Virus record (IMG/VR): IMGVR_UViG_3300044656_000252
Coordinates: 12,232 to 76,231 of that record
Source: a virus
Lineage: Duplodnaviria > Caudoviricetes
Length of the DNA stretch: 64,000 bases
Strand: one strand, 5' to 3'
Position 1 is the stretch's first letter. The number at the start of each line of letters is the position of its first letter. The position numbers and the translations under genes were made by a program. A model generated the notes under the pieces. It ran no database searches and was not told the origin of the DNA. It worked only from the letters and a program-made list of their open reading frames with translations. This document shows positions 30,116 through 64,000 of the stretch, piece by piece.

Positions 30116-30493
30116 ATGCCGCACGACCAGCAACACCTCGCCCGCATCGTCGACCAGCTCGCCGGAGGAGACATGGCCCCGACACAGCTCGCCGAGCTGC
30201 CCGACGACCAGCTCGCCGCCGTCGGACGGATAGCGGCGCAACGACGCGAAACCGATCAGGACGTGGTCGGACAGGTCGCCGCCGAGTTCAACCAGAACCG
30301 CGGCCGGCCGTGGCGGGAAATCGCCGCCCTGCTCGAGCAGGAATCGCACGCGACCATCTACCGCTGGGCGCGCCCGTTCCTTGCGTCCCCAGACTCAGTG
30401 TCAACGGCAGGTTCACAACCAGTGAACCCCACGGCATCTCAGCCCCATCTACTCGAACCCAAGATCGAGCACCTACCGCTGGGGAGCGACTGA
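30116..30493 (+). CDS. Putative HTH DNA-binding protein
   Basis: GRPWREIAALLEQESHATIYRW. Confidence 0.6.
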   Translation: MPHDQQHLARIVDQLAGGDMAPTQLAELPDDQLAAVGRIAAQRRETDQDVVGQVAAEFNQNRGRPWREIAALLEQESHATIYRWARPFLASPDSVSTAGSQPVNPTASQPHLLEPKIEHLPLGSD

Positions 30494-30495
30494 CC

Positions 30496-31302
30496 ATGAA
30501 AATCACTGGTGACGCCGAGCGCACCCTCGCCGTCATCTCGATCGGCGTGTGGGGTGTCGCGCTCGTCGTCATGGCCGTATCCGCCACGACGGCGGCCGAC
30601 CTGTTCCGGCTGCACAGCGCGAACTGGACGCAGGGCCTGGCGCTCGGGCTGGCCATCGACGCGGCGCTCGCGGTGGCGCTGGTCGGCGACAAGGCGCTCG
30701 CCCAGCTCGGCCTCTCGTCGCGCTGGGGCACCGCGCTGCGGTGGGCGGCGACGGTGATGTCGTTGGTGCTGAACTGCTCGGCCGCGTGGCTGGCCGGCGA
30801 CGCATTGGGCGTGACGCTGCACGCGATCCCGCCAGCACTGTTGATCGTCCTCACCGAGGCCGCGCAGTCGTACCGGACCGCGCTGGCCGAGCATCACATG
30901 AAGATCGCCGCCGAGCAGGAGCGGCTCGCCGCCGCTGCACGCCAGAAGGCGGAGCAGGAGGCACAGGCCCAGCGCGAGCAGGAGAAGCGGCAGCGGGACG
31001 AGGCTGCTGCAGCGCGCCGGCGGGAGCGCGAGGCCACTGCGGCGCCGTCGAAGCCGCTGGTGCTGGTGAAACCGACTGTCGGGCTCGACGTGCCGGAGGA
31101 CGCGTCACTGAAGGACAAGGCCCGCGCATGGTTCATGCGAGAGGCGTTCAAGACCGACCGACACTGGGAGTCCATCTCGGCCGTCGAGTGCGACCGGGCG
31201 GTCGGCGCTTCCGAGGGCATGAGCAAGAAGCACATCAAGGGCTGGCGTGCCGAAGTCGCCGCTGCCATGGGCAACTCCGGCACCGCCGCGGCCGGGAACT
31301 GA
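30496..31302 (+). CDS. DUF2637/SpdA-like membrane protein
   Basis: 4 TM helices (LAIDAA..ALV; SLVLNC..AW; HAIPPALL..LTE), coiled coil, possible C-terminal HTH. Confidence 0.75.
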   Translation: MKITGDAERTLAVISIGVWGVALVVMAVSATTAADLFRLHSANWTQGLALGLAIDAALAVALVGDKALAQLGLSSRWGTALRWAATVMSLVLNCSAAWLAGDALGVTLHAIPPALLIVLTEAAQSYRTALAEHHMKIAAEQERLAAAARQKAEQEAQAQREQEKRQRDEAAAARRREREATAAPSKPLVLVKPTVGLDVPEDASLKDKARAWFMREAFKTDRHWESISAVECDRAVGASEGMSKKHIKGWRAEVAAAMGNSGTAAAGN

Positions 31303-31313
31303 AGGGAAAGAAC

Positions 31314-31514
31314 ATGAACGTCTACCTGGTGTGCGCGATCCTCGGCGTGCTCGCCGTCGTCGCCTTCGGCCGCGGCTGGACCAAGTCCGGCTTCGCCGCG
31401 CTCGTCCTGTTCGGCGTGATGCTCGCGACCACCGCCATCGGCCCGAACCTCCAACACGGCGTGTCCACCGGCGTGGACAGCGCCATCGCCACCGTCAAGT
31501 CGTTCTTCAGCTGA
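31314..31514 (+). CDS. Small 2-TM protein (Spd-like by position)
   Basis: 66 aa, hydrophobic; GGGAAAG RBS. Confidence 0.6.
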   Translation: MNVYLVCAILGVLAVVAFGRGWTKSGFAALVLFGVMLATTAIGPNLQHGVSTGVDSAIATVKSFFS

Positions 31515-31533
31515 CCATCCGAGGAGTCCCGCC

Positions 31534-31803
31534 ATGATCACCACCACCGAGCAGGCCGTCGCGTTCTGGGCGGCCGAGGCCGCCAAGGTCGACCGACTCA
31601 TCACCGACCTCGACGACCTGATGCCCGCCACCCACAACGGCGAGACGCCGTTCACCGAGCAGACCCGCGAGGACGTCGAGGGCGCGCTGTTCCAGGCCCG
31701 CCTCGCCGCGGACACCGTGCTCGGTGCCTACACGCGCGTGCTGCACCAGGAGCGGGCGAACCCGCCGCAGCCGTCCGGCCCGTACAGCCAGCCGCGTTAC
31801 TGA
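31534..31803 (+). CDS. Hypothetical protein
   Basis: GAGGAG RBS; ORF track. Confidence 0.65.
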   Translation: MITTTEQAVAFWAAEAAKVDRLITDLDDLMPATHNGETPFTEQTREDVEGALFQARLAADTVLGAYTRVLHQERANPPQPSGPYSQPRY

Positions 31804-31827
31804 TCCGGTGAAGGAAGGAGTCCCCCG

Positions 31828-33165
31828 GTGGTTACCGTCGCGCCCGAGCAGCCGCAGCGGGAGAGGTGGATCTCTCCCCATGCGCTGCTGGGCGCTACCA
31901 GCGCGGGGAGCGCCGGCATGACGACGGCTGGGCTGATCGCGGGACCGACAGGTGTCGTGGTGGTGACGGCGGCGGGCGCGTTGACCGCTGGCGGGATCGC
32001 GGCGGTGCGCAGGTTCGCGCCGGGCGCGGCGGAGAAGCTGGGGCTGCGGAAGCCGGACAAGAAGGCCGACAAGAAGTCGGACGGCAAGTCCAAGGCGAAC
32101 GGCCCCGGCAAGGGCCTCGGGGGCAGGGGCGGTCTCGGTCGTCTCGGCCTGCTGGGTGCCGGCGGTCGCAAGAAGGGCGCCGGTGACGGTGGCGGCCGGA
32201 AGCGTGGCGGCGGCCTGCTGGGGATGGCCCGCAACATCGCCGGCAAGGGAGCCGGCCTGGCCAAGCGGGGCGCGAACGCCGCAGCGAAGAAGGGCGCTGG
32301 CCTGCTTGGCGGCAAGGACCCGACTCGCAGGAATGCCCGCGGCCGTAACGGGTCTGGGCCGGCCGGCGGGAAGCAGCGTGGTGTCGGTGGCCCGACCGGT
32401 CGTGGTCGTGGGGCCGGTAGCGGCCCGGGGCGCGGCAAAGGCCCCGGCGGCAAGAGCAACAGCGGCAAGGATCGGAGCAGCGGCCGCGGCTTGGGGGGCC
32501 GGCTCGGCCGCACCGCCGCAAGCCTTGTCGGCTGGGGCGCGCGCCGCTTGTTCGGCCTGAAGCGTCCCTCCGACACCAACTCCGCATCGACGGGGCATGG
32601 CGGAGGGAAGCCGAAGGACAGGAAGAAGCGCACCAAGGGCTCGGGGCTGCTCGGTGGCCGGGGCGCGGAGCGCATGCCGGACAGCGCGAGGCCCAAGGAC
32701 CGCAAGGGCAAGAAGGACAAGAGCCGCACGAAGAACGTTCCGCCGGGCCGCGGGCCGCGGCGGGAGGTCACAGCAGGACAGCCGGACCGGAGTGGCCGGC
32801 GCGCACATGGAGGAACGACGATGCCCGATCCGTTCGCGAGTCGCCGCGAGGCGATCTCGGGGGCCGCACCGCTGGAGATCAACAAGGCTGGTGACGTCGC
32901 CGACTACGTCAAGCACGCCCCCGACTACGCCGAAGCGCAGGCCCGCGGGTGGCTGCGTGACGCCGACACGATCGTCGAGAAGGTGAACCTGAACCCGGAC
33001 TTCACCGACGCCCTGAAGGGGTTCGCGAACACGCAGCTGGCCGCCGTCCAGGCGGTGCGTGAGTACGGGGCCGTGTTCGAGCGCAGCCACGCCGAGAAGC
33101 TGCGGCGGACGCGCGACCGGGACCCGCGTGAGGCCATGTGGGACGTCGACCGTCACCGCGACTGA
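31828..33165 (+). CDS. TraA-like protein: TM, long G/K/R-rich linker, helical C-terminal domain
   Basis: Directly upstream of traB; C-terminus FERSHAE...PREAMWDV resembles actinomycete plasmid proteins found before TraB. Confidence 0.55.
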   Translation: MVTVAPEQPQRERWISPHALLGATSAGSAGMTTAGLIAGPTGVVVVTAAGALTAGGIAAVRRFAPGAAEKLGLRKPDKKADKKSDGKSKANGPGKGLGGRGGLGRLGLLGAGGRKKGAGDGGGRKRGGGLLGMARNIAGKGAGLAKRGANAAAKKGAGLLGGKDPTRRNARGRNGSGPAGGKQRGVGGPTGRGRGAGSGPGRGKGPGGKSNSGKDRSSGRGLGGRLGRTAASLVGWGARRLFGLKRPSDTNSASTGHGGGKPKDRKKRTKGSGLLGGRGAERMPDSARPKDRKGKKDKSRTKNVPPGRGPRREVTAGQPDRSGRRAHGGTTMPDPFASRREAISGAAPLEINKAGDVADYVKHAPDYAEAQARGWLRDADTIVEKVNLNPDFTDALKGFANTQLAAVQAVREYGAVFERSHAEKLRRTRDRDPREAMWDVDRHRD

Positions 33166-33187: not shown

Positions 33188-35674
33188 ATGACCGCGCCAG
33201 CCACCCAGGATGCGCCGCCGACTGACGAGAAGCCGGCCAAGGCCAAGAAGCAGAAGCCCGAGGCGACCCCGCCGAAGCGCGGTCTCGGTGACGCGCTGCG
33301 CGAGTTCGAGCCGGACTTGCGCTGGTTCCTGCCGGCGGTCGCCGCCTGCCAGGCGTACACGCTGGCGGCGATTCCGGTGTGGACCGGGCTGCCGTCCTGG
33401 GTGCTCGTCGCGCCCGGCGTGGCATCGACGGCGGCGGGTGTGTGGCTGGCCCGGCACTTCTACAAGGCCGTCGAGTACGGGCACGAGCAGCGGCGCGCGG
33501 CGCAGGCCATCGCGGTCGGCGCCGGCGTGCTGATGACCGCGTGGATGGTGTTCGCCGGCAGCGGGAACCCGCTGCGGCCGGTGGCGCTTGGCGCGCTGCT
33601 GCTGGTGGCGTTGGTGTGCGGGGCAGCGTTCGGCGCCCTGCACACCCGGGCCCCGTCGGTGAAGGCCGAGGTCGAGGCCAAGCGCACCGAGGTCATCGAG
33701 GCCAACTCGGAGCGCGTGGCCGAGGTCGAGCTGGCCAAGACCCGGGACGAGTGGCAGGAGATCGCCGACCAGGCCCGACCCGGGTGCGGCATCACCGTCG
33801 TCGGCCGGGCGGACCAGCCGGGTGGCTTCTACGTCGACTTCGCTGACAACCCCACCAAGCCGATCAAGTGGGTGGGATTCTGCGACATGGTCGGCTCGAT
33901 GCTGTCGATCGCCTCGGCGCGACTGGCGCCGTCCGGGATCGTCCTGTCTGAAGGCGACCTGAGCCCGGAGCAGCCGGAGGGTATGCCGGCGCACCTGTTT
34001 CGGCTGCACGTGTTCACGTCGAACGAGTTCGCCCAGAGCCTGCCGTACCCGATGGACCGGCCGGTCGGCACGATCGTCGAGCCGCGGATCATCGGCCGCT
34101 ACAAGGACATGTCGCCGCTGGGGGTGTGCCTGTGCGGCAACCACGGCGTGATGTGCGCCGGCACCGGCGGCGGGAAGACGGTGTGCGCGAACTGCCTGAT
34201 CGCCGGGGTGCTCGAGTGTGGCGACGCCGAGGTGTGGATGGGTGGCACGTCGAAGCTGACGCCGTTGGCCTACCCGTGGCTGCTGCCGTGGCTGCTGGGT
34301 CGCACCACCCGACCGGTGATCCAGTACGTGTCGGGTGAGGACCCGCGCAGCGTCACCGAGATGCTCGCTGAGCTGTACCGGGAGGCGAAGCGCCGCAACT
34401 CGAAGCTGGGCCGCCGGTCGAAGCACGCGCCGTCGAAGGACGAGCCCGCGCTGGTGTGCTTCATCGAGGAAGCGTCCGACCTGCTGATGAACCACAGCGA
34501 GGTGCGGGTCCCCACGTTCGACGGGCACAGTTGGAACGCCTCGCAGATCTTGAACGCGATCGCGCAGATCGCCCGCGCCGCGAGCATCTCGATCTTCCTG
34601 CTGACCCAGTTCGGGATCATGGACGCGCTGGGCACCCACGGGTCGCTGATGCGCCGCAACCTGACGATCCGAATCTGCGGCCGCACCTACACCTACAGCG
34701 ATGGCCGGGACATCCTGACCGCGATCAGCGCACCTGACACGACCAAGCTGAAGGACAACACGCTGCTGGTGCAGCCCGCGATGGAGGAGCCGCGGGTGAT
34801 GGCGGCGAAGGCGTACTTCCTGGACGGGGCGGAGACGATCGGCCCGGTCGCCGAGAAGTACACAGCACGCCGCACGGAATGGGAACCGCCGCTGGCTGGT
34901 GACGCTTTCCGCGAGCGGTGGAGCGCGCTGCGGCTGCCCGAGTTGGCCGCTATCGCAGCGGATGAGGGTCTATCGTGGCCCGGAAGTGTGCACACAGGGT
35001 CACGAGCCGCGGAGGTAATTGATCAGCCGGCGCTGCCGGTCGCGGCTCCCGATAAGGGGAGCGACACCATGTCGGATGATGTGAAGGCGATGCTGAGCGA
35101 TGCGCAGGCCCAGATGGATGTGGCGATCGAGTCGGCCCGCAAATACGGCCCGCTCGGCCCGCTGATGGGCGAAGTCTTCAACAAGGTGAATGCCGAGAAC
35201 GCTCCCGAGTTCATTCCCGCCGGACAGCTCGCGTACGGCCTGGGGCGTGTCCTCAAGGACGGGGACTGGGACACGGCGGGGGACACCCTGGCCGGGGAGC
35301 TGGCGGGGAAGCCGTGGTACCTGTCCCCGACCCGTCAGGAGGGGACGTTGGGGTGGCCGCGGGACCTGATCCTGGGGACGATCCGCGCGTTCCTCGAGGG
35401 ACGCCCTGTCCCCGGCGAGGGGACGACCGAGGGGACGGACCTGTCGGCTGGGGAGACCTTGGGGGTCTTGGTGCGGGAGCTGGCCGGGGACGACCGCGAG
35501 TTCGTCACCGCGGTCGACGCCGCCGCCATGGTCGGGATGAGCGCGGCGGCGTTGCAGCGGATGCTCGAGGGCGAGCCGTTCAGGCTGCCGATGCAGCGAC
35601 CCCGCACGGTCACGGATGGTGAGCGGCCGCGTGGCTGGTTCGTGGCGGATCTGCGCCGCGCTGCTGGCATGTGA
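33188..35674 (+). CDS. traB: TraB-type FtsK/SpoIIIE conjugative DNA translocase
   Basis: 4 N-terminal TM helices; Walker A AGTGGGKT; Walker B variant VCFIEEAS; R...ISIFLLTQ; C-terminal wHTH-like segment. Confidence 0.85.
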   Translation: MTAPATQDAPPTDEKPAKAKKQKPEATPPKRGLGDALREFEPDLRWFLPAVAACQAYTLAAIPVWTGLPSWVLVAPGVASTAAGVWLARHFYKAVEYGHEQRRAAQAIAVGAGVLMTAWMVFAGSGNPLRPVALGALLLVALVCGAAFGALHTRAPSVKAEVEAKRTEVIEANSERVAEVELAKTRDEWQEIADQARPGCGITVVGRADQPGGFYVDFADNPTKPIKWVGFCDMVGSMLSIASARLAPSGIVLSEGDLSPEQPEGMPAHLFRLHVFTSNEFAQSLPYPMDRPVGTIVEPRIIGRYKDMSPLGVCLCGNHGVMCAGTGGGKTVCANCLIAGVLECGDAEVWMGGTSKLTPLAYPWLLPWLLGRTTRPVIQYVSGEDPRSVTEMLAELYREAKRRNSKLGRRSKHAPSKDEPALVCFIEEASDLLMNHSEVRVPTFDGHSWNASQILNAIAQIARAASISIFLLTQFGIMDALGTHGSLMRRNLTIRICGRTYTYSDGRDILTAISAPDTTKLKDNTLLVQPAMEEPRVMAAKAYFLDGAETIGPVAEKYTARRTEWEPPLAGDAFRERWSALRLPELAAIAADEGLSWPGSVHTGSRAAEVIDQPALPVAAPDKGSDTMSDDVKAMLSDAQAQMDVAIESARKYGPLGPLMGEVFNKVNAENAPEFIPAGQLAYGLGRVLKDGDWDTAGDTLAGELAGKPWYLSPTRQEGTLGWPRDLILGTIRAFLEGRPVPGEGTTEGTDLSAGETLGVLVRELAGDDREFVTAVDAAAMVGMSAAALQRMLEGEPFRLPMQRPRTVTDGERPRGWFVADLRRAAGM

Positions 35675-35724
35675 GTCGTGCCGCGGGTGCCCTCCGGTCG
35701 TGCTCGGCTGGAGGGCATCGCTGT

Positions 35725-35972
35725 GTGGACCACCGCGTGGACCGGGCGTGGGCCGGCGTGGTCGTCGGCGTGGACCGGGTGTGGACCACCGGTCGGTGTG
35801 GACCAGCCGGTCCATGGCCGGTGACCTGGGATGGTCCACGTTGTCAACGATGTCACGCGAGTGGTCCACGTGGACCAGCAGGACAGGTGCCGCAAATACC
35901 TGACCTGCGGAAACAGTCGCAACACCCCCTGTGTCGGGTGGTCCACGCAAACAGGCGTGGACCGTGTGGACC
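35725..35972. repeat. GTGGACC repeat array, putative clt/TraB recognition locus
   Basis: 8 forward copies (35725, 35737, 35770, 35781, 35798, 35870, 35957, 35966) and 3 reverse copies (35833, 35863, 35940) directly after traB. Confidence 0.8.
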
Positions 35973-35993
35973 ACAAGCGAGGAGCACACGCTG

Positions 35994-36749
35994 ATGATGG
36001 GCCGAACGCACGCGTTGTCCGGGTGGTGCGCGGGGCTACTGGTGGCTCCGTTGCTCGGCGCGGCCAGCCCGGCGCAGTCACTGTTAGTGGCGGCGACGGT
36101 GGCCGGCTGGAGTCTGGCGCCGGACCTGGATCACCCGGGCGCGGTGGCGACGCGGTGGGGCGGCTGGGTGACGGGCTGGTTGTCGCTGGCGCTGCGGGAG
36201 CTGTCGGCAGTGGCGTTCGAGGCGACGCGGACTCCCCGGGATCGGGACAGCGAGGGGACGCACCGGCACCTCAGCCACACCTTCGTGTTCGCCGCGGTGG
36301 TCGGCGGGGTCACCGCGCTGGGGACTGCCCTGTCCCCTTGGTGGGGAGTGCTGCTCCCCGTGACGGTGGGGACTCTGCTGGCCGGGAGGTCCCTGGGGAG
36401 GTGGGTGCTGGGGGCGGGGGCTGTCCCCGTGGTGTGGGGACTCCTGGCGGGTGGGGACGAGCTGTCCCCCGTGCGCGGCTGGATCGGCGTGGCGGTCGCT
36501 CTTGGGTGTGTGGTGCACATCTTGGGGGATGCTCTGACGCGTGCGGGTGTGCCGTTCTTGTGGCCGCTGCCTATTCGTGGCCAGCGGTGGTTCCGGATAG
36601 CCACTCCGTATGGCCTGCGCTTTCGTGCTGGTGGTGGTGCTGAGCGTCTGCTGGTCTTTCCGTTGTTCGTTGTCTTGGGTGTTGCTCTCTTTCCGGGTGT
36701 TCTGTCGGTCGCTGTCGGTGTGGTGACCGGTGCGATAGGGGCTCGTTAG
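35994..36749 (+). CDS. YdjM/YbcI-family membrane metal-dependent hydrolase
   Basis: MMGRTH, APDLDHPG, HRHLSHT, HILGDALT..GVPFLWP. Confidence 0.88.
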   Translation: MMGRTHALSGWCAGLLVAPLLGAASPAQSLLVAATVAGWSLAPDLDHPGAVATRWGGWVTGWLSLALRELSAVAFEATRTPRDRDSEGTHRHLSHTFVFAAVVGGVTALGTALSPWWGVLLPVTVGTLLAGRSLGRWVLGAGAVPVVWGLLAGGDELSPVRGWIGVAVALGCVVHILGDALTRAGVPFLWPLPIRGQRWFRIATPYGLRFRAGGGAERLLVFPLFVVLGVALFPGVLSVAVGVVTGAIGAR

Positions 36750-37280: not shown

Positions 37281-37628
37281 ATGACCGACAAGCACGAGCC
37301 GACCGCCTTCGACGAGGTGCTGGCCTGGTTGGACACGCTGCCGCCGATCCAGCGTGCCAGGTGGCTGGGCGCGCTGCTGGACACCCGGAACGCGAGGGGG
37401 CTCACCGCTGTCCGCGTGGACGCCATCTACGAGGAGACCAGGAGGCGCACGTACGACGAGGTTGCGGCTGAGCTGGGCGTGTCGCGGTCGGCGGTGCGGA
37501 ATGCCGTGAAGGCTCACAACGAGCGGCTGACGGTGGCCGGCGAGCATGGGCTGGCGTCTTGGCCTGACGCTACTGAATCGACACAGAACATCGCGGCGCG
37601 AGGCGCCCAACGTGAGGAGCAGCAGTGA
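37281..37628 (+). CDS. HTH DNA-binding protein
   Basis: RTYDEVAAELGVSRSAVRNAV. Confidence 0.75.
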   Translation: MTDKHEPTAFDEVLAWLDTLPPIQRARWLGALLDTRNARGLTAVRVDAIYEETRRRTYDEVAAELGVSRSAVRNAVKAHNERLTVAGEHGLASWPDATESTQNIAARGAQREEQQ

Positions 37629-37882: not shown

Positions 37883-38155
37883 TCAGCGCTTGATCGCGGC
37901 CAGCGCCTGCCCTGGCGTCCAGCAGGGGTGTTCGGTGCGGCGGAACTCGACGGGCTTCAGCGGCGGCCTGACCGGCTGCGCTCGGCTGGCGGTGAGGGCG
38001 TCGGCGGCGTGCTGGTGCACGTCGCGTCCGTGAATGGTCTCGGGCAGGTGCTGGGCGTCCCAGCGGGCGCAGGCGAGCTCGTGGTCGCGCTCCTCGTCGG
38101 GTACATCGAGCTCGGCGGCGAGGCGGTGGTATTCGGCGGCGTCCATGCAGGTCAT
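37883..38155 (-). CDS. Hypothetical protein divergent from GntR gene
   Basis: ORF track. Confidence 0.5.
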   Translation of the reverse strand: MTCMDAAEYHRLAAELDVPDEERDHELACARWDAQHLPETIHGRDVHQHAADALTASRAQPVRPPLKPVEFRRTEHPCWTPGQALAAIKR

Positions 38156-38186
38156 CCTGCGCCGACGGGTGGCTGCGCATCAAGGT

Positions 38187-38224
38187 TTGAGTTACGCAAC
38201 TATCCTAGCTAACCTAGTGGAATG
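38187..38224 (+). promoter_or_regulatory. Promoter for a probably leaderless GntR transcript
   Basis: TTGAGT-17bp-TAACCT-6nt-ATG; two CTAG tetramers overlap the -10. Confidence 0.55.
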
Positions 38225-38647
38225 AGGACAATCGACCCTAACGACCCCACCCCGGCGAGCCGGCAAATCGCCGACGCCATCCGCGACGCGATCCGCACCG
38301 GCGAGATCGCCGAGGGCGAGCGCATCCCCGGCCAGGCGGCGCTCATGGCCCACTTCGGCGTCGCCAAGGGCACCGTCGACACCGCCCTCACCGCCCTCAA
38401 GACGGAGGGCCTGCTGATCGGTCGGCAAGGCGCGGGCGTGTATGTCCGGACGAGCACGAAGGACGGCACCGCCGAGGTTGAGCGATCCGCCACGGTGCTC
38501 TACGACGCCAGCCTCGGTGCCCTGACGGTGCGGCTCGATATGACTGACGACGAGCCGCCCGGCGACTTCTGGATCCGCTCGGTCAGAGTGAAGCTCGTAT
38601 ATCCGGAGGGCTCGTCCAACTGGGGCGAGCGGTACCTCTCTCGCTAG
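38222..38647 (+). CDS. GntR-family wHTH regulator (KorSA/TraR-like)
   Basis: RQIADAIRDAIRTGE..EGERIPG...LMAHFGVAKGTV..AL..LKTEGLL..RQGAGVYVR. Confidence 0.9.
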   Translation: MRTIDPNDPTPASRQIADAIRDAIRTGEIAEGERIPGQAALMAHFGVAKGTVDTALTALKTEGLLIGRQGAGVYVRTSTKDGTAEVERSATVLYDASLGALTVRLDMTDDEPPGDFWIRSVRVKLVYPEGSSNWGERYLSR

Positions 38648-50433: not shown

Positions 50434-51090
50434 TCATCCCGCCGGACGCAGAGCCCGGCGCCGGTCCTCACCCTTCAGCGCCACCTGGCGGGACATTTCC
50501 CTCAACCGCGACGCCACCCGCTCGCCGAGCCCGTTGCGGAGCTCCGCGCCGCCGAGGTTGCTGGTGACGATCGTGGCCAGGTGGTGTTCGTACCGGTGGT
50601 TGATCACCCGGAACGTGATCTCCTCCGTCCACTCCGACGTCTTGGCCGCGCCGAGGTCGTCGAGCAGCAACAGCGGGATCTTCTGGTAGCGGGCCATGGC
50701 TGCCTCGGGGTTGCCACGCTCCTTCGGCCGCAGTTCGGCGTAGAGGTCGGCGGCGGTGATGGCGGCCCAGCTGACGGCGACGCCGCTGTGGGCGATCTGC
50801 CGGATCGCCCCGAACGACTCGTGTGTCTTGCCCGTGCCAACCGGCCCGAGCAGGAGCAGCGAGGGTCCTGTCGCGACGATCGGGTTGAACGCCCGTGCCG
50901 ACTTGGCCGCGCTGTGGCACAGCTCGACGGCCCAGGCGCGCACGCCGGGGTCGGTGACGGTGGCCTCGCGGTAGTGGACCGGCACGTCGGCGAGGGCCGC
51001 GTCGGCGTTGGCCTGGTTGGTCTCGACCCAGTGCGGGTCCAGGCCCGGGTAGGCGTCGATCAGGTCGAGCAGCGCGAGTTCGTGCATCAC
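50434..51090 (-). CDS. DnaC/IstB-like helicase loader ATPase
   Basis: GPVGTGKT, LLLLDDLGA, INHRYE..TIVTSN, RVASRL. Confidence 0.92.
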   Translation of the reverse strand: MMHELALLDLIDAYPGLDPHWVETNQANADAALADVPVHYREATVTDPGVRAWAVELCHSAAKSARAFNPIVATGPSLLLLGPVGTGKTHESFGAIRQIAHSGVAVSWAAITAADLYAELRPKERGNPEAAMARYQKIPLLLLDDLGAAKTSEWTEEITFRVINHRYEHHLATIVTSNLGGAELRNGLGERVASRLREMSRQVALKGEDRRRALRPAG

Positions 51091-52034
51091 AGGTCCTCGT
51101 CGTAGATGGAGTGATCGGTCGGGCTCCGGAAGGGCTGATAGCCGCCGGCGGCGGCGCGCAGCTGGGGCCGCTGGGGCTCGTCGTCCCAGCAGCCCTTGTT
51201 GAGCCAGGTGGCCGGGTGCTTGGTGTAGGTCGGGTCCTGGCCGGCCCGCTCAGCGGCGTAGCGACGCACGCCGGCGATGAGCTCGTCCGCGGTGGCCCCG
51301 TCCTTGATGGCCTTGTCCCAGGCGCGGCGGGCGTCCTTCTTCCCGACCTTCTTGGGATAGACCCTCCAGAACTCGTCGAACTGGGCGGTCGTGATCGCCA
51401 CCGGCGGCGGGGGAGAGAGATCTATTGGCAGTTCAATTGGCAGTTCACTGGCAGTTGTAGCCGGGGTGACCTGCGGTTGTAACGGTTGTGGGGCCGTGAC
51501 AAACGGCGTGCCGCGCCGTGACTCACGCACTGCCGCGCCGTGACTCACGGCCTGCGACGCCGTGACCGTCACGTCCTCGCGCGCCGTGACTGTCACGCTC
51601 TCCGAGACCGTGACATCACGGTCTGGCGCACCGTGACCGGCGGCCTCCTGAGCCCTCCGCTCGCGGTGCCGCCGCTGCCGCTCGCGGTCGGCCAGGCGCC
51701 GCCGCTCCCGGTGCTGGTCGACCACCGACGGCCCGGTGTTGACGACCTCGAGGTGCAGCCGCCACACCACGGTGCCGCCGGTGAGGCAGGCCGTCTTCGA
51801 GATCAGGCCGGCTGCCTGGATCCGGTCGAGCGCCTCGGACACGTACTTCGGCGTGAGGTAGCAGTCGTCGGCGAGTAGGTCGAGCCCGGGGCGGGCCTCG
51901 CTGCCGTCCTTCTTGGCGTAGGTGGCCAGCACGAGCAGCACGTGATGTGCAGTGGTGTCGACGCGCCCGTCGGCGCGCAGCATCGGCGGCACGTTCTTGG
52001 CCCAGTTGATCGGACTGAACGCTGTCGGTCGCAT
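51087..52034 (-). CDS. Phage replication initiator
   Basis: N-terminal wHTH; FDEFWRVYPKKVGK..A..AW; KHPATWLN..CWDDE; adjacent to the DnaC-like gene. Confidence 0.85.
   Translation of the reverse strand: MRPTAFSPINWAKNVPPMLRADGRVDTTAHHVLLVLATYAKKDGSEARPGLDLLADDCYLTPKYVSEALDRIQAAGLISKTACLTGGTVVWRLHLEVVNTGPSVVDQHRERRRLADRERQRRHRERRAQEAAGHGAPDRDVTVSESVTVTAREDVTVTASQAVSHGAAVRESRRGTPFVTAPQPLQPQVTPATTASELPIELPIDLSPPPPVAITTAQFDEFWRVYPKKVGKKDARRAWDKAIKDGATADELIAGVRRYAAERAGQDPTYTKHPATWLNKGCWDDEPQRPQLRAAAGGYQPFRSPTDHSIYDEDL
51495..51637. repeat. Iteron-like CCGTGAC repeats, putative origin
   Basis: Seven CCGTGAC copies (about 51495, 51516, 51538, 51560, 51584, 51608, 51631), five closed by TCACG. Confidence 0.75.
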
Positions 52035-62351: not shown

Positions 62352-62567
62352 GTGCGAGACGAACGCCCACGCTGGACCCTCGCATGCCGTGACGACGCCG
62401 GCCGCGAGAGAGTCCACCACGTCGAGGTGACCGAGCACGGTGTGGTGCGGCTGCTGCCGCCGATGGTCGGGCCGACTCAGTGGGATCCGGAGCAGATCGA
62501 TCGGCTGGTGGTGGCGCTGATCGAGGCCCGCGGACTGGCCCAGCGCCGCCGAGCAGGCGGCGGCTAG
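62352..62567 (+). CDS. Small hypothetical protein resembling Pseudonocardiaceae accessory proteins
   Basis: WTLACRD.AGRER...PP. Confidence 0.6.
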   Translation: MRDERPRWTLACRDDAGRERVHHVEVTEHGVVRLLPPMVGPTQWDPEQIDRLVVALIEARGLAQRRRAGGG

Positions 62568-63757
62568 CTGGCGGCCACCTCTTCAGGCTTCATCAGCTGG
62601 TCGATCGCGACGCCAGCCCGACGGTTCACCTTCCGCACCGTGTAGTGCTTCTCAGCGGTGGTCACGCTGGAGTGGCGGAGCTGGTCTCGGTTGTCCTCGG
62701 CACTCAAACCGGCCGTCCGGAGCCACGTCGAGACGGTCTTGCGGCCCCACTTGGTCGAGAAGTCTGGGTGGTCGATCCGGACGCGGAGCCGCCGGACGGA
62801 GTCCATCACGCCGTTCGGGCCCCGCCACGATCCCTTGTGGTTGGGGAACACCGGGTCTTCGGGCTTCGCGTCCTGCGGCAGCCGGAACCGCAGCAGGTCG
62901 ACCAGAAACTCGGGCAGCGGCAGGACGCCCTCGGATGCGTCGGTCTTGCCGTCGTGCCTGACCAGGCCGCCGATGCCGTGCACGATGTTCCCGTTGATCC
63001 ACACACTCCGCGGCGGAAGCTCCTGGTCGCCGAACACCTCGCTGTGGACGAACACCGGCTCGTCGGACAGGTTCAGGTCGATCCACCGCACGGCCAGCGC
63101 CTCGCCGACCCGACAGCCGGTCCCGAAGAGGAACCGGAGCAGGTCAGGGAGGTAGCTCACCTTCATGTACTTGTCGGCGTCGACCGCTGCCAGGAACTCC
63201 TGGAGGTCCTTCTGGTCGAACGCCCGCTTCCGCTTCCGGTCGGTGCGCTTGATCTTCCTCAGCTCTCGGGCGGGGTTGTAGTCCATGAGCTCCTCGAGGA
63301 CGGCCCACTGGAACATCGCCTTCATCACGACCTTCGCCATGGAGCACGTGCCGTACGAGTAGTTCCGCTTCTGCATGTCGTCGATGACCTTCTGGAGCCG
63401 AGAGGTCTTGCACTCGTGCAGTCCGAGGGCGCCGACAGCGGGAACGACGTGCTTCTTCATCGCGCTCTGGTAGCGCAGGAAGGTGGTGTCCTGTTCCTGG
63501 TCTCGCACGACGCCGAGCCACTTGGTCGCCAGTTCCTCGACGGTCGAGGAGCGGCTGAGCTGGTCGTTTTTGCCGCCGAGGCTGCGCAGGTACTTCAGCA
63601 GCCGGCGCCGTGCCTCTTCCTCGTTCGCGCCCCAGCGCTCCCGCTTGGCGGTGGTGCCGTCGTCGAATCGGTAGGAGGCGTACGCGCGGACCCGGTCGCC
63701 TTCGGTGATGTAACCGATCTTGCCCCACGTGCCGATCTCGAGCCGCGGTCGCGCCAT
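62564..63757 (-). CDS. int: Tyrosine integrase
   Basis: MARPRLEIGTWGKI; GTGCRVGEALAVRW.D; GKT; R in KWGRK; LRH; KHY; GGAGG RBS. Confidence 0.93.
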   Translation of the reverse strand: MARPRLEIGTWGKIGYITEGDRVRAYASYRFDDGTTAKRERWGANEEEARRRLLKYLRSLGGKNDQLSRSSTVEELATKWLGVVRDQEQDTTFLRYQSAMKKHVVPAVGALGLHECKTSRLQKVIDDMQKRNYSYGTCSMAKVVMKAMFQWAVLEELMDYNPARELRKIKRTDRKRKRAFDQKDLQEFLAAVDADKYMKVSYLPDLLRFLFGTGCRVGEALAVRWIDLNLSDEPVFVHSEVFGDQELPPRSVWINGNIVHGIGGLVRHDGKTDASEGVLPLPEFLVDLLRFRLPQDAKPEDPVFPNHKGSWRGPNGVMDSVRRLRVRIDHPDFSTKWGRKTVSTWLRTAGLSAEDNRDQLRHSSVTTAEKHYTVRKVNRRAGVAIDQLMKPEEVAAS

Positions 63758-64000
63758 GTCCGCCTCCACCGTCCATGATCAAATGCAAGCGTGGGTTTTT
63801 TGCGGGGATCGCCGAAAGTGGGACCGCTGAAGTCGTATCCGCCCGCGCTGAGCTGGAACGATAGCAGGGTCTAGTCATGAACGTCGAGTTCTAGCCATAC
63901 CCGCAGGTCAAGACGGTTTCATGGGTTTGGGTAAGGTCGAGCAGCCATGATCCACAGTGTGGCCCCGCGTGACTCCGGATCGATCAGCAACCGGACGGCC

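Follow-up and report, generated by a model that had tools for sequence, protein, structure and literature searches.

Directly downstream of the gene for an FtsK/SpoIIIE-like (TraB-like) ATPase, the actinophage genome analyzed here carries a short non-coding array of GTGGACC words, which flank a conserved core that is also found in other phages, plasmids and chromosomes. We read this array as a nucleoprotein-assembly module of a type widespread in actinobacteria and suspect, with somewhat less than even confidence, that its words are read by the adjacent TraB-like protein. Such modules are defined here by a core of the form (C)TGACCTGCGGAAAC(A/G), an element-specific 7-9-mer present five times or more within about 200 bp and a location in non-coding DNA, all of which are found in the array. 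A literature search with the exact motif and the topic yielded no description of the core, which appears to be undescribed so far and to constitute a more far-reaching result than the candidate TraB site.

The phage genome and the layout of the array

The window, i.e., the whole stretch of 64,000 nucleotides that was analyzed, comprises bases 12232-76231 of an IMG/VR virus record of 76,231 bp, which has 127-bp terminal repeats, is rated 100% complete and has a GC content of about 69%. Its source is a temperate tailed actinophage. Structural and lysis genes are located on the plus strand up to about 28.4 kb, and a replication/recombination block on the minus strand encodes a DnaD/O-like initiator, a DnaC-like loader, Erf, an exonuclease and a polymerase exonuclease subunit. 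Judged by its FtsK-like protein, the closest sequenced phage is the Saccharomonospora phage PIS 136 (JX006077). The main features of the window are as follows:

33188-35674, plus strand: FtsK/SpoIIIE-like (TraB-like) ATPase gene, 828 aa, ATG start at 33188 checked
35688-35717, plus strand: hairpin (arms of 13 nt, loop of 4 nt), directly 3′ of the stop codon of the TraB-like gene
35723-35815: left iteron block, with five exact forward GTGGACC words, GTGGGCC, GTGGTCG and the reverse variant GGTCCAT
35829-35877: core-proximal left iterons, reverse at 35833 and 35863, forward at 35870
35900-35915, plus strand: conserved core CTGACCTGCGGAAACA, sole copy in the phage genome
35936-35974: right iteron block, reverse at 35940, forward at 35957 and 35966
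35994-36749, plus strand: YdjM-like membrane hydrolase gene (PF04307, 1.1e-21; phrog_20744, 5.6e-48)
50434-51090: DnaC-like loader gene, adjoining the initiator gene
51087-52034, minus strand: DnaD/lambda-O-like initiator gene, holding tandem iterons
62564-63769: tyrosine integrase gene

Exact copies of GTGGACC or its reverse form GGTCCAC occur 11 times within 35725-35972, with plus-strand copies starting at 35725, 35737, 35770, 35781, 35798, 35870, 35957, and 35966 and minus-strand copies at 35833, 35863, and 35940. Both the count and the distribution over the strands (8 forward, 3 reverse) are the same as in the first-pass annotation of this DNA, and the variants GTGGGCC and ATGGACC that it had listed were found as well, at 35748 and, in the form GGTCCAT, at 35809, each with one mismatch; a further word, GTGGTCG at 35759, has two mismatches to GTGGACC. 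In register, the array word is the 9-mer (T/C)GGTCCAC(A/G). The words of the left block are spaced by 11-12 bp (35725, 35737, 35748, 35759, 35770, and 35781, then 35798 and 35809), a register of approximately one helical turn, and a perfect 14-bp palindrome, GGTCCACGTGGACC, is located at 35863-35876. The core itself sits in an iteron-free stretch of 62 bp, the GC content of which is 0.60 versus 0.69.

The full genome of 76,231 bp contains 23 copies of GTGGACC, 12 of them outside the array, and the array is the top 7-mer cluster of the whole phage genome. Shuffled sequences led to an expectation of 18.3 copies per 64 kb, corresponding to 0.07 per 248 bp, and the Poisson probability of at least 11 copies in 248 bp is about 5e-21. 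Clusters of GTGGACC were not seen in the other loci retrieved, Rfam contained no family for the array or for ten related loci, and a BLASTN search with 12 kb around the array against phages and plasmids yielded no match.

It had been stated previously that the array lies directly after traB and holds no convincing open reading frame. Both statements are borne out, as the array begins 51 bp past the stop codon of the TraB-like gene and the gap of about 320 bp (35675-35993) has no frame-specific GC3 signal, unlike the flanking genes (GC3 of 0.79-0.90), and is therefore regarded as non-coding. A scan of the gap for sigma-70-like promoters and T-run terminators found neither; the hairpin at 35688-35717, likely the terminator of the TraB-like operon, has no T-run and hence is not called by a consensus terminator scan. 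The YdjM-like gene, the first one downstream of the array, is preceded by an AGGAG ribosome-binding site at 35980-35984 and followed by small genes, including those for an HTH protein (37281-37628) and a 141-aa GntR-family protein (38222-38647).

This arrangement brings up the question of whether the array is an operator through which a phage regulator, e.g., the GntR-family or the HTH protein, controls the ydjM operon. A terminator-like hairpin precedes the array and a co-directional operon begins behind it, the array includes a perfect palindrome, and GTGGAC fits the general operator pattern of GntR-type regulators, GT-Nx-AC. Genes with GntR domains are also found in PIS 136 and in one further phage with a similar array (locus L032). 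On the other hand, the lack of a sigma-70-like promoter in the gap speaks against an operator, as do the thirteen phased sites, which are far above what operators usually need, and the fact that the orientation of such modules relative to the flanking genes is variable across lineages, including positions between convergent genes. A GntR operator in particular is unlikely because the array word is missing at the gntR promoter, no GTGGACC-like word being present in the region upstream of this gene (38130-38260). Altogether, we regard control of the ydjM operon as a very unlikely function of the array.

The replication origin of the phage has another candidate location. Inside the initiator gene, at 51493-51637, 6-7 tandem units of 22-24 bp, each with the structure TCACG-N11-CCGTGAC, were found, and this region most likely serves the phage as its own replication origin, of the lambda type. 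The array as primary origin was rejected on the grounds that the O-like initiator gene carries its own 22-24-bp iterons.

A conserved core in actinobacterial phages, plasmids and chromosomes

The arrays of the window and of PIS 136 share a 16-bp identity, TGACCTGCGGAAACAG, which in the window is located at 35900-35915 within the iteron-free gap. The conserved block extends over about 17-18 nt and has the form (C/G)T(C/T)TGACCTGCGGAAACA(C/G). In IMG/VR, the exact 15-mer of the core was found in more than 120 contigs among the matches listed, and about one third of these listed matches have a dense array of one 7-10-mer within 100-200 bp of the 15-mer. The word that is repeated differs by lineage, examples being GTGACTAC, CCGTCACC, AAGTGGCAC, AACTGCCCT, GGACGTATCC, CGGCACAC, and GTGAAACAG. 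A 7-mer repeated five or more times within 200 bp on either side was present for 27% of the cores, versus 2.4% of the control positions. Among GenBank phages, 431 records contain the core, nearly all of them actinophages (about 400), with 378 phages of Mycobacterium, 20 of Streptomyces and 20 of Gordonia in addition to phages of Arthrobacter, Corynebacterium and Rhodococcus.

In chromosomes of Actinomycetes, the exact 15-mer yielded 99 matches in 55 of the 121 genomes sampled, and the reversed control none. Seven of the 99 matches come from five unpublished genomes (G011, G019, G034, G036, and G040), leaving 92 matches in 50 of 116 genomes when these are removed. When up to two mismatches were allowed, 7-29 copies per genome were found, versus 1-3 for the control. 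The core is variably oriented with respect to the flanking genes and is also found between convergent genes, observations which led to the rejection of the core as a promoter. No single gene family is enriched beside the viral modules.

In the corynephage CL31 (MW582634), three tandem cores, twelve TACCACACG words and an AT-rich tract are located directly 3′ of the primase/polymerase gene clg_33 (locus L128, 3300-3560; about 18.3-18.5 kb of the record), an arrangement that by its sequence looks like a textbook origin. The CL31 genome paper makes no mention of this candidate origin. In the phages TP1604 and PherryCruz, the core lies between primase and helicase genes. In the phages Oscar and Schmidt it lies, together with arm-like repeats, by a tmRNA 3′ fragment and a tyrosine integrase gene (attP), and in many mycobacteriophages it is found 50-100 bp from the right cohesive end. 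Among plasmids, the core adjoins a RepL-like gene in one from Streptomyces and is also present in Arthrobacter plasmids. On the Streptomyces linear plasmid pRL2 (NC_007927; locus L291, 570-830), two cores are flanked by about ten AACTGAACGT words 100-300 bp upstream of a ParA/MipZ-like gene (ParA-like operon), which makes this region a candidate centromere or origin.

In chromosomes, the core occurs directly past tRNA genes and duplicated tRNA fragments, positions which are att sites of integrated elements. At a tRNA-Leu locus of Pseudarthrobacter (L250, L251), three copies of a unit composed of the core and the 3′ end of tRNA-Leu lie within 85 kb, one belonging to an intact tRNA-Leu gene and two to fragments, and the words nearby differ (TGTGCACA and TGTCAACAC/TGTCCACA). 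This pattern is suggestive of elements integrated in tandem, with the core as part of their att sites. At some loci, a long hairpin immediately follows a gene or tRNA and carries the core in its loop or across both stem and loop; such hairpin-borne cores lie past the end of a sigma-factor gene in Pseudonocardia (L187) and in terminator-like hairpins at two further loci (L241, L050).

Since most modules of named phages and plasmids are found in replication or partition settings (CL31, TP1604, PherryCruz, the RepL-like gene, pRL2 parA), and primases, helicases, SSB and initiators are recurrent among the module neighbors, the array of the window might be a second replication origin or a partition-type centromere, read by a phage protein other than the TraB-like one or DnaA. 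However, no initiator, Rep or ParA/ParB gene was recognized beside it, a lambda-like origin is already present 15 kb away in the DnaD/O-like initiator gene, beside the DnaC-like loader, and the tyrosine integrase makes plasmid maintenance unnecessary. Moreover, the gap contains no AT-rich tract, its minimum GC content being 0.60. An origin or centromere is therefore unlikely here.

The core among DnaA boxes

A further set of chromosomal cores lies among DnaA boxes. The core was found in oriC (the dnaA-dnaN spacer) of one Streptomyces and one Isoptericola, and in at least ten genomes also in the region 200-400 bp upstream of dnaB; the core of the window is identical to the one in the dnaA-dnaN spacers of the loci L259 and L265 and in the dnaB-upstream clusters. 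Three Streptomyces chromosomes (L255, L260, and L282) also have a core-containing DnaA-box cluster in the rhomboid-DUF881 spacer, about 25 kb from oriC, and we assume that it may correspond to D78 of S. coelicolor.

The GTGGACC words themselves could thus be bound by host DnaA, in which case the cluster would titrate or re-route this protein in the manner of datA or D78, or would serve as a DnaA-dependent auxiliary origin. DnaA-box clusters outside oriC have been described as negative regulators of replication (PMC3479198). The array word (T/C)GGTCCAC(A/G) agrees with 7-8 of the 9 positions of the DnaA-box consensus, given as TTGTCCACA or as TT(G/A)TCCACA, the latter derived here from 82 boxes around chromosomal cores. 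Its variant TGGTCCAC is present in genuine chromosomal DnaA-box clusters. The same core accompanies the boxes in oriC, in the dnaB-upstream clusters and in the rhomboid-DUF881 cluster of Streptomyces, and the iterons of the phage initiator sit elsewhere (51493-51637).

Several observations, however, speak against DnaA binding. All 11 array copies have a G at box position 2, so that none of the 11 is canonical, whereas chromosomal clusters are heterogeneous and consist mostly of TT(G/A)TCCACA, with only about 7 of the 82 boxes reading (T/C/G)GGTCCAC. The iterons in most other phages are unrelated to DnaA boxes. In addition, PIS 136 uses another uniform word, GGTTCCAC, which is easier to explain by a diverging phage protein than by the conserved host DnaA. 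We consider binding of DnaA fairly unlikely on this basis.

The TraB-like protein and FtsK-like genes beside other modules

The 828-aa protein encoded upstream of the array contains N-terminal hydrophobic helices, a coiled coil, a Walker A motif (GTGGGKT) and a Walker B motif (IEEASD), followed by a conserved C-terminal segment whose sequence pattern resembles, by eye, a helix-turn-helix of the Xis/MerR type. Ten metagenomic relatives with 37-85% identity keep these motifs and the C-terminal segment, and GTGGGKT and IEEASD are invariant in the 11 aligned sequences. A comparison with PHROGs assigned the protein to phrog_31069 (FtsK/SpoIIIE-like, 2.2e-12), and its ESM Atlas neighbors belong to DUF87/FtsK_SpoIIIE clusters (0.95-0.96). 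It shares 30% identity with PIS_041 of phage PIS 136 and 26-30%, over the core region, with actinomycete plasmid proteins. A Pfam search gave no family at E<0.01, including for the C-terminal winged helix-turn-helix (wHTH), and sequence and profile searches against the PDB found neither an FtsK match nor a C-terminal wHTH. The AlphaFold2 model computed from the family alignment has a pLDDT of 40 and is too poor for a fold search. Profile and protein searches with the family for related loci in viral, metagenome and genome contigs found none.

The co-directional genes that precede the TraB-like gene (30116-33165) have no Pfam or PHROG family. They encode an HTH-like protein of 125 aa, a membrane protein with four helices, a small protein with two transmembrane segments, a protein of 89 aa and a Gly/Lys-rich protein of 445 aa. 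Any Spd/TraA-like identity of these genes is a matter of resemblance, since Pfam searches of 30496-31302, 30116-30493, 31534-31803, and 31828-33165 returned no family and so gave no support for DUF2637 or Spd-type proteins.

In three other unrelated viral lineages, an FtsK-like gene is likewise found beside a similar array, namely at L032, at L042/L112/L127 and, within 2.5 kb, in PIS 136. The gene at L032 encodes an FtsK-like protein of 814 aa with a Pfam FtsK_gamma wHTH and ends 156 bp before the core; hhalign gave a weak match between this protein and the family of the 828-aa protein. At L042/L112/L127, a Pfam FtsK_SpoIIIE gene abuts the module. The array of PIS 136, with about 11 GGTTCCAC/GTGGAAC words and 2-3 cores (L001, 3160-3460 and 3700-3850; about 40.1-40.5 kb of the record), is located in an unannotated 1.3-kb gap 2.5 kb upstream of the FtsK-like gene. 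For most core-plus-iteron modules, an FtsK-like gene is absent within 3-5 kb, and hundreds of core-bearing elements have no such gene nearby.

Within each phage, the array word is uniform, GGTCCAC in the window versus GGTTCCAC in PIS 136, and the C-terminal regions of the FtsK-like proteins of the two phages are not alignable in a single pairwise comparison. Two further observations concern PIS 136. PIS_045, a minus-strand coding sequence next to its array, is packed with GGAACC/GGTTCC and contains 13 CGGAACC in 300 bp. The phage also has two tandem FtsK-like ATPase regions, L001 5923-8484 and 8597-9631 (PIS_041 and PIS_039, with 46% identity over 317 aa), and the window phage has one FtsK-like region.

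Proposed mechanism and reader of the words

In the mechanism that we propose, about 13 (T/C)GGTCCAC(A/G) words, in both orientations and on both sides of a single core of 16-17 nt (CTGACCTGCGGAAACA), would form the scaffold of the module. Many copies of one DNA-binding protein would load onto the phased words, while a conserved host factor would bind or bend the core. The words would be read by the C-terminal helix-turn-helix of the upstream FtsK/TraB-like translocase, and the module would then be the loading site of this translocase on the phage DNA, a clt-like locus.

The core would play the part that IHF sites have in oriC, datA, attP, cos and parS. IHF sites of Escherichia coli and its elements are located in oriC, datA, DARS2, attP and cos of lambda, and parS of P1. 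Because the spread of the core over unrelated elements resembles this distribution, we infer by analogy that the core may be bound by an architectural host factor conserved in actinobacteria, and that the element's own protein may bind the repeats. In modules with recognizable neighbors, the binder is usually encoded next door, as Rep, Int, primase or in a ParA operon. The attP of phage L5, a classical mIHF-dependent site, does not contain the core at up to three mismatches, which probably weakens mIHF as the core binder and leaves it without the standing of an obvious candidate.

The adjacent TraB-like pump as reader of the GTGGACC words at a clt-like site is a reading to which we would give a little under an even chance. 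It is favored by the fact that the array abuts an FtsK-like gene with a C-terminal HTH-like segment, by the FtsK-like genes that adjoin modules in three other lineages, and by the observation that word and FtsK-like C-terminus both differ between the window and PIS 136. On the other hand, the adjacency could be a coincidence, since FtsK-like genes are absent from the 3-5 kb around most modules; the PIS 136 array lies upstream of the FtsK-like gene, at a distance of 2.5 kb, and not 3′ of it; the array word resembles a DnaA box; and neither GTGGACC clusters in the other retrieved loci nor Spd-type genes in Pfam searches were found. The earlier proposal that the array is a clt locus with a new recognition word is thus upheld in part. 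The FtsK/SpoIIIE-type ATPase, its adjacency and the similar pairs in three lineages speak for it. The layout, however, is that of a general module and not diagnostic of clt, because the core is common to origins, att sites, partition-operon leaders and cos-proximal regions, and the DnaA-box reading competes with it. The array is best described as a candidate site at which a TraB-type protein loads onto the DNA of a tailed phage.

Implications

For the role of FtsK-like genes in actinophages, published papers offer no more than guesses, namely replication or host development, and a candidate DNA target beside such a gene makes its role testable. If the pump reading is true, the phage genome could pass from one hyphal compartment or cell to the next without the need for virions. 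A host protein that binds the core, should there be one, would be a sequence-specific architectural factor so far missing from the picture of actinobacterial replication, integration and packaging; a protein that is phylum-wide would be a functional counterpart of IHF for oriC, datA-like clusters, att sites, plasmid origins or centromeres, and phage cos or ori sites. The full combination, in which the actinophage carries a working TraB-type double-stranded DNA pump with its loading site and the core is the site of a phylum-wide IHF-like architectural protein, is improbable in our estimation. The core, which is strongly over-represented in Actinomycetes and present in well-used mycobacteriophages and in CL31, would also be of practical use as a marker when origins, att sites and cis sites are sought in mobile elements of actinobacteria.

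Comparison with known systems

In the TraB-clt paradigm, hexameric TraB assembles on 8-bp TRS repeats beside traB (PMC4170104). The window resembles the pSVH1-type system of Streptomyces in that the gene for a membrane-anchored FtsK-like ATPase is followed by a non-coding array of a 7-9-bp word, and, as is the case for clt (PMC4170104), the word is specific to each element. It differs in that the element is a tailed temperate phage with a distantly related ATPase (26-30%), that the words are present in both orientations around a conserved core, which is no part of the clt description found, and that Spd-type genes have no Pfam support and the wHTH is putative.

DnaA-box clusters provide a second parallel. 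In oriC, datA and DARS2 of E. coli with IHF, and in D78 of S. coelicolor, boxes with a TCCAC core likewise flank a single asymmetric conserved site; the likening of the core of the window to an IHF site is an analogy. This core is also part of actinobacterial oriC and dnaB-upstream clusters, whereas the word of the window is uniform and non-canonical and its setting is that of a phage.

Iteron-type origins, centromeres and packaging sites that include the site of a host factor (lambda ori and cos, P1 parS and pSC101) have in common with the window that element-specific short repeats flank a site which is common to unrelated elements. Unlike these, the array of the window has no adjacent initiator, partition or terminase gene. 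The array of PIS 136 uses another word and lies upstream of the FtsK-like gene, but like the array of the window it consists of about 11 words, placed around 2-3 copies of the very same core.
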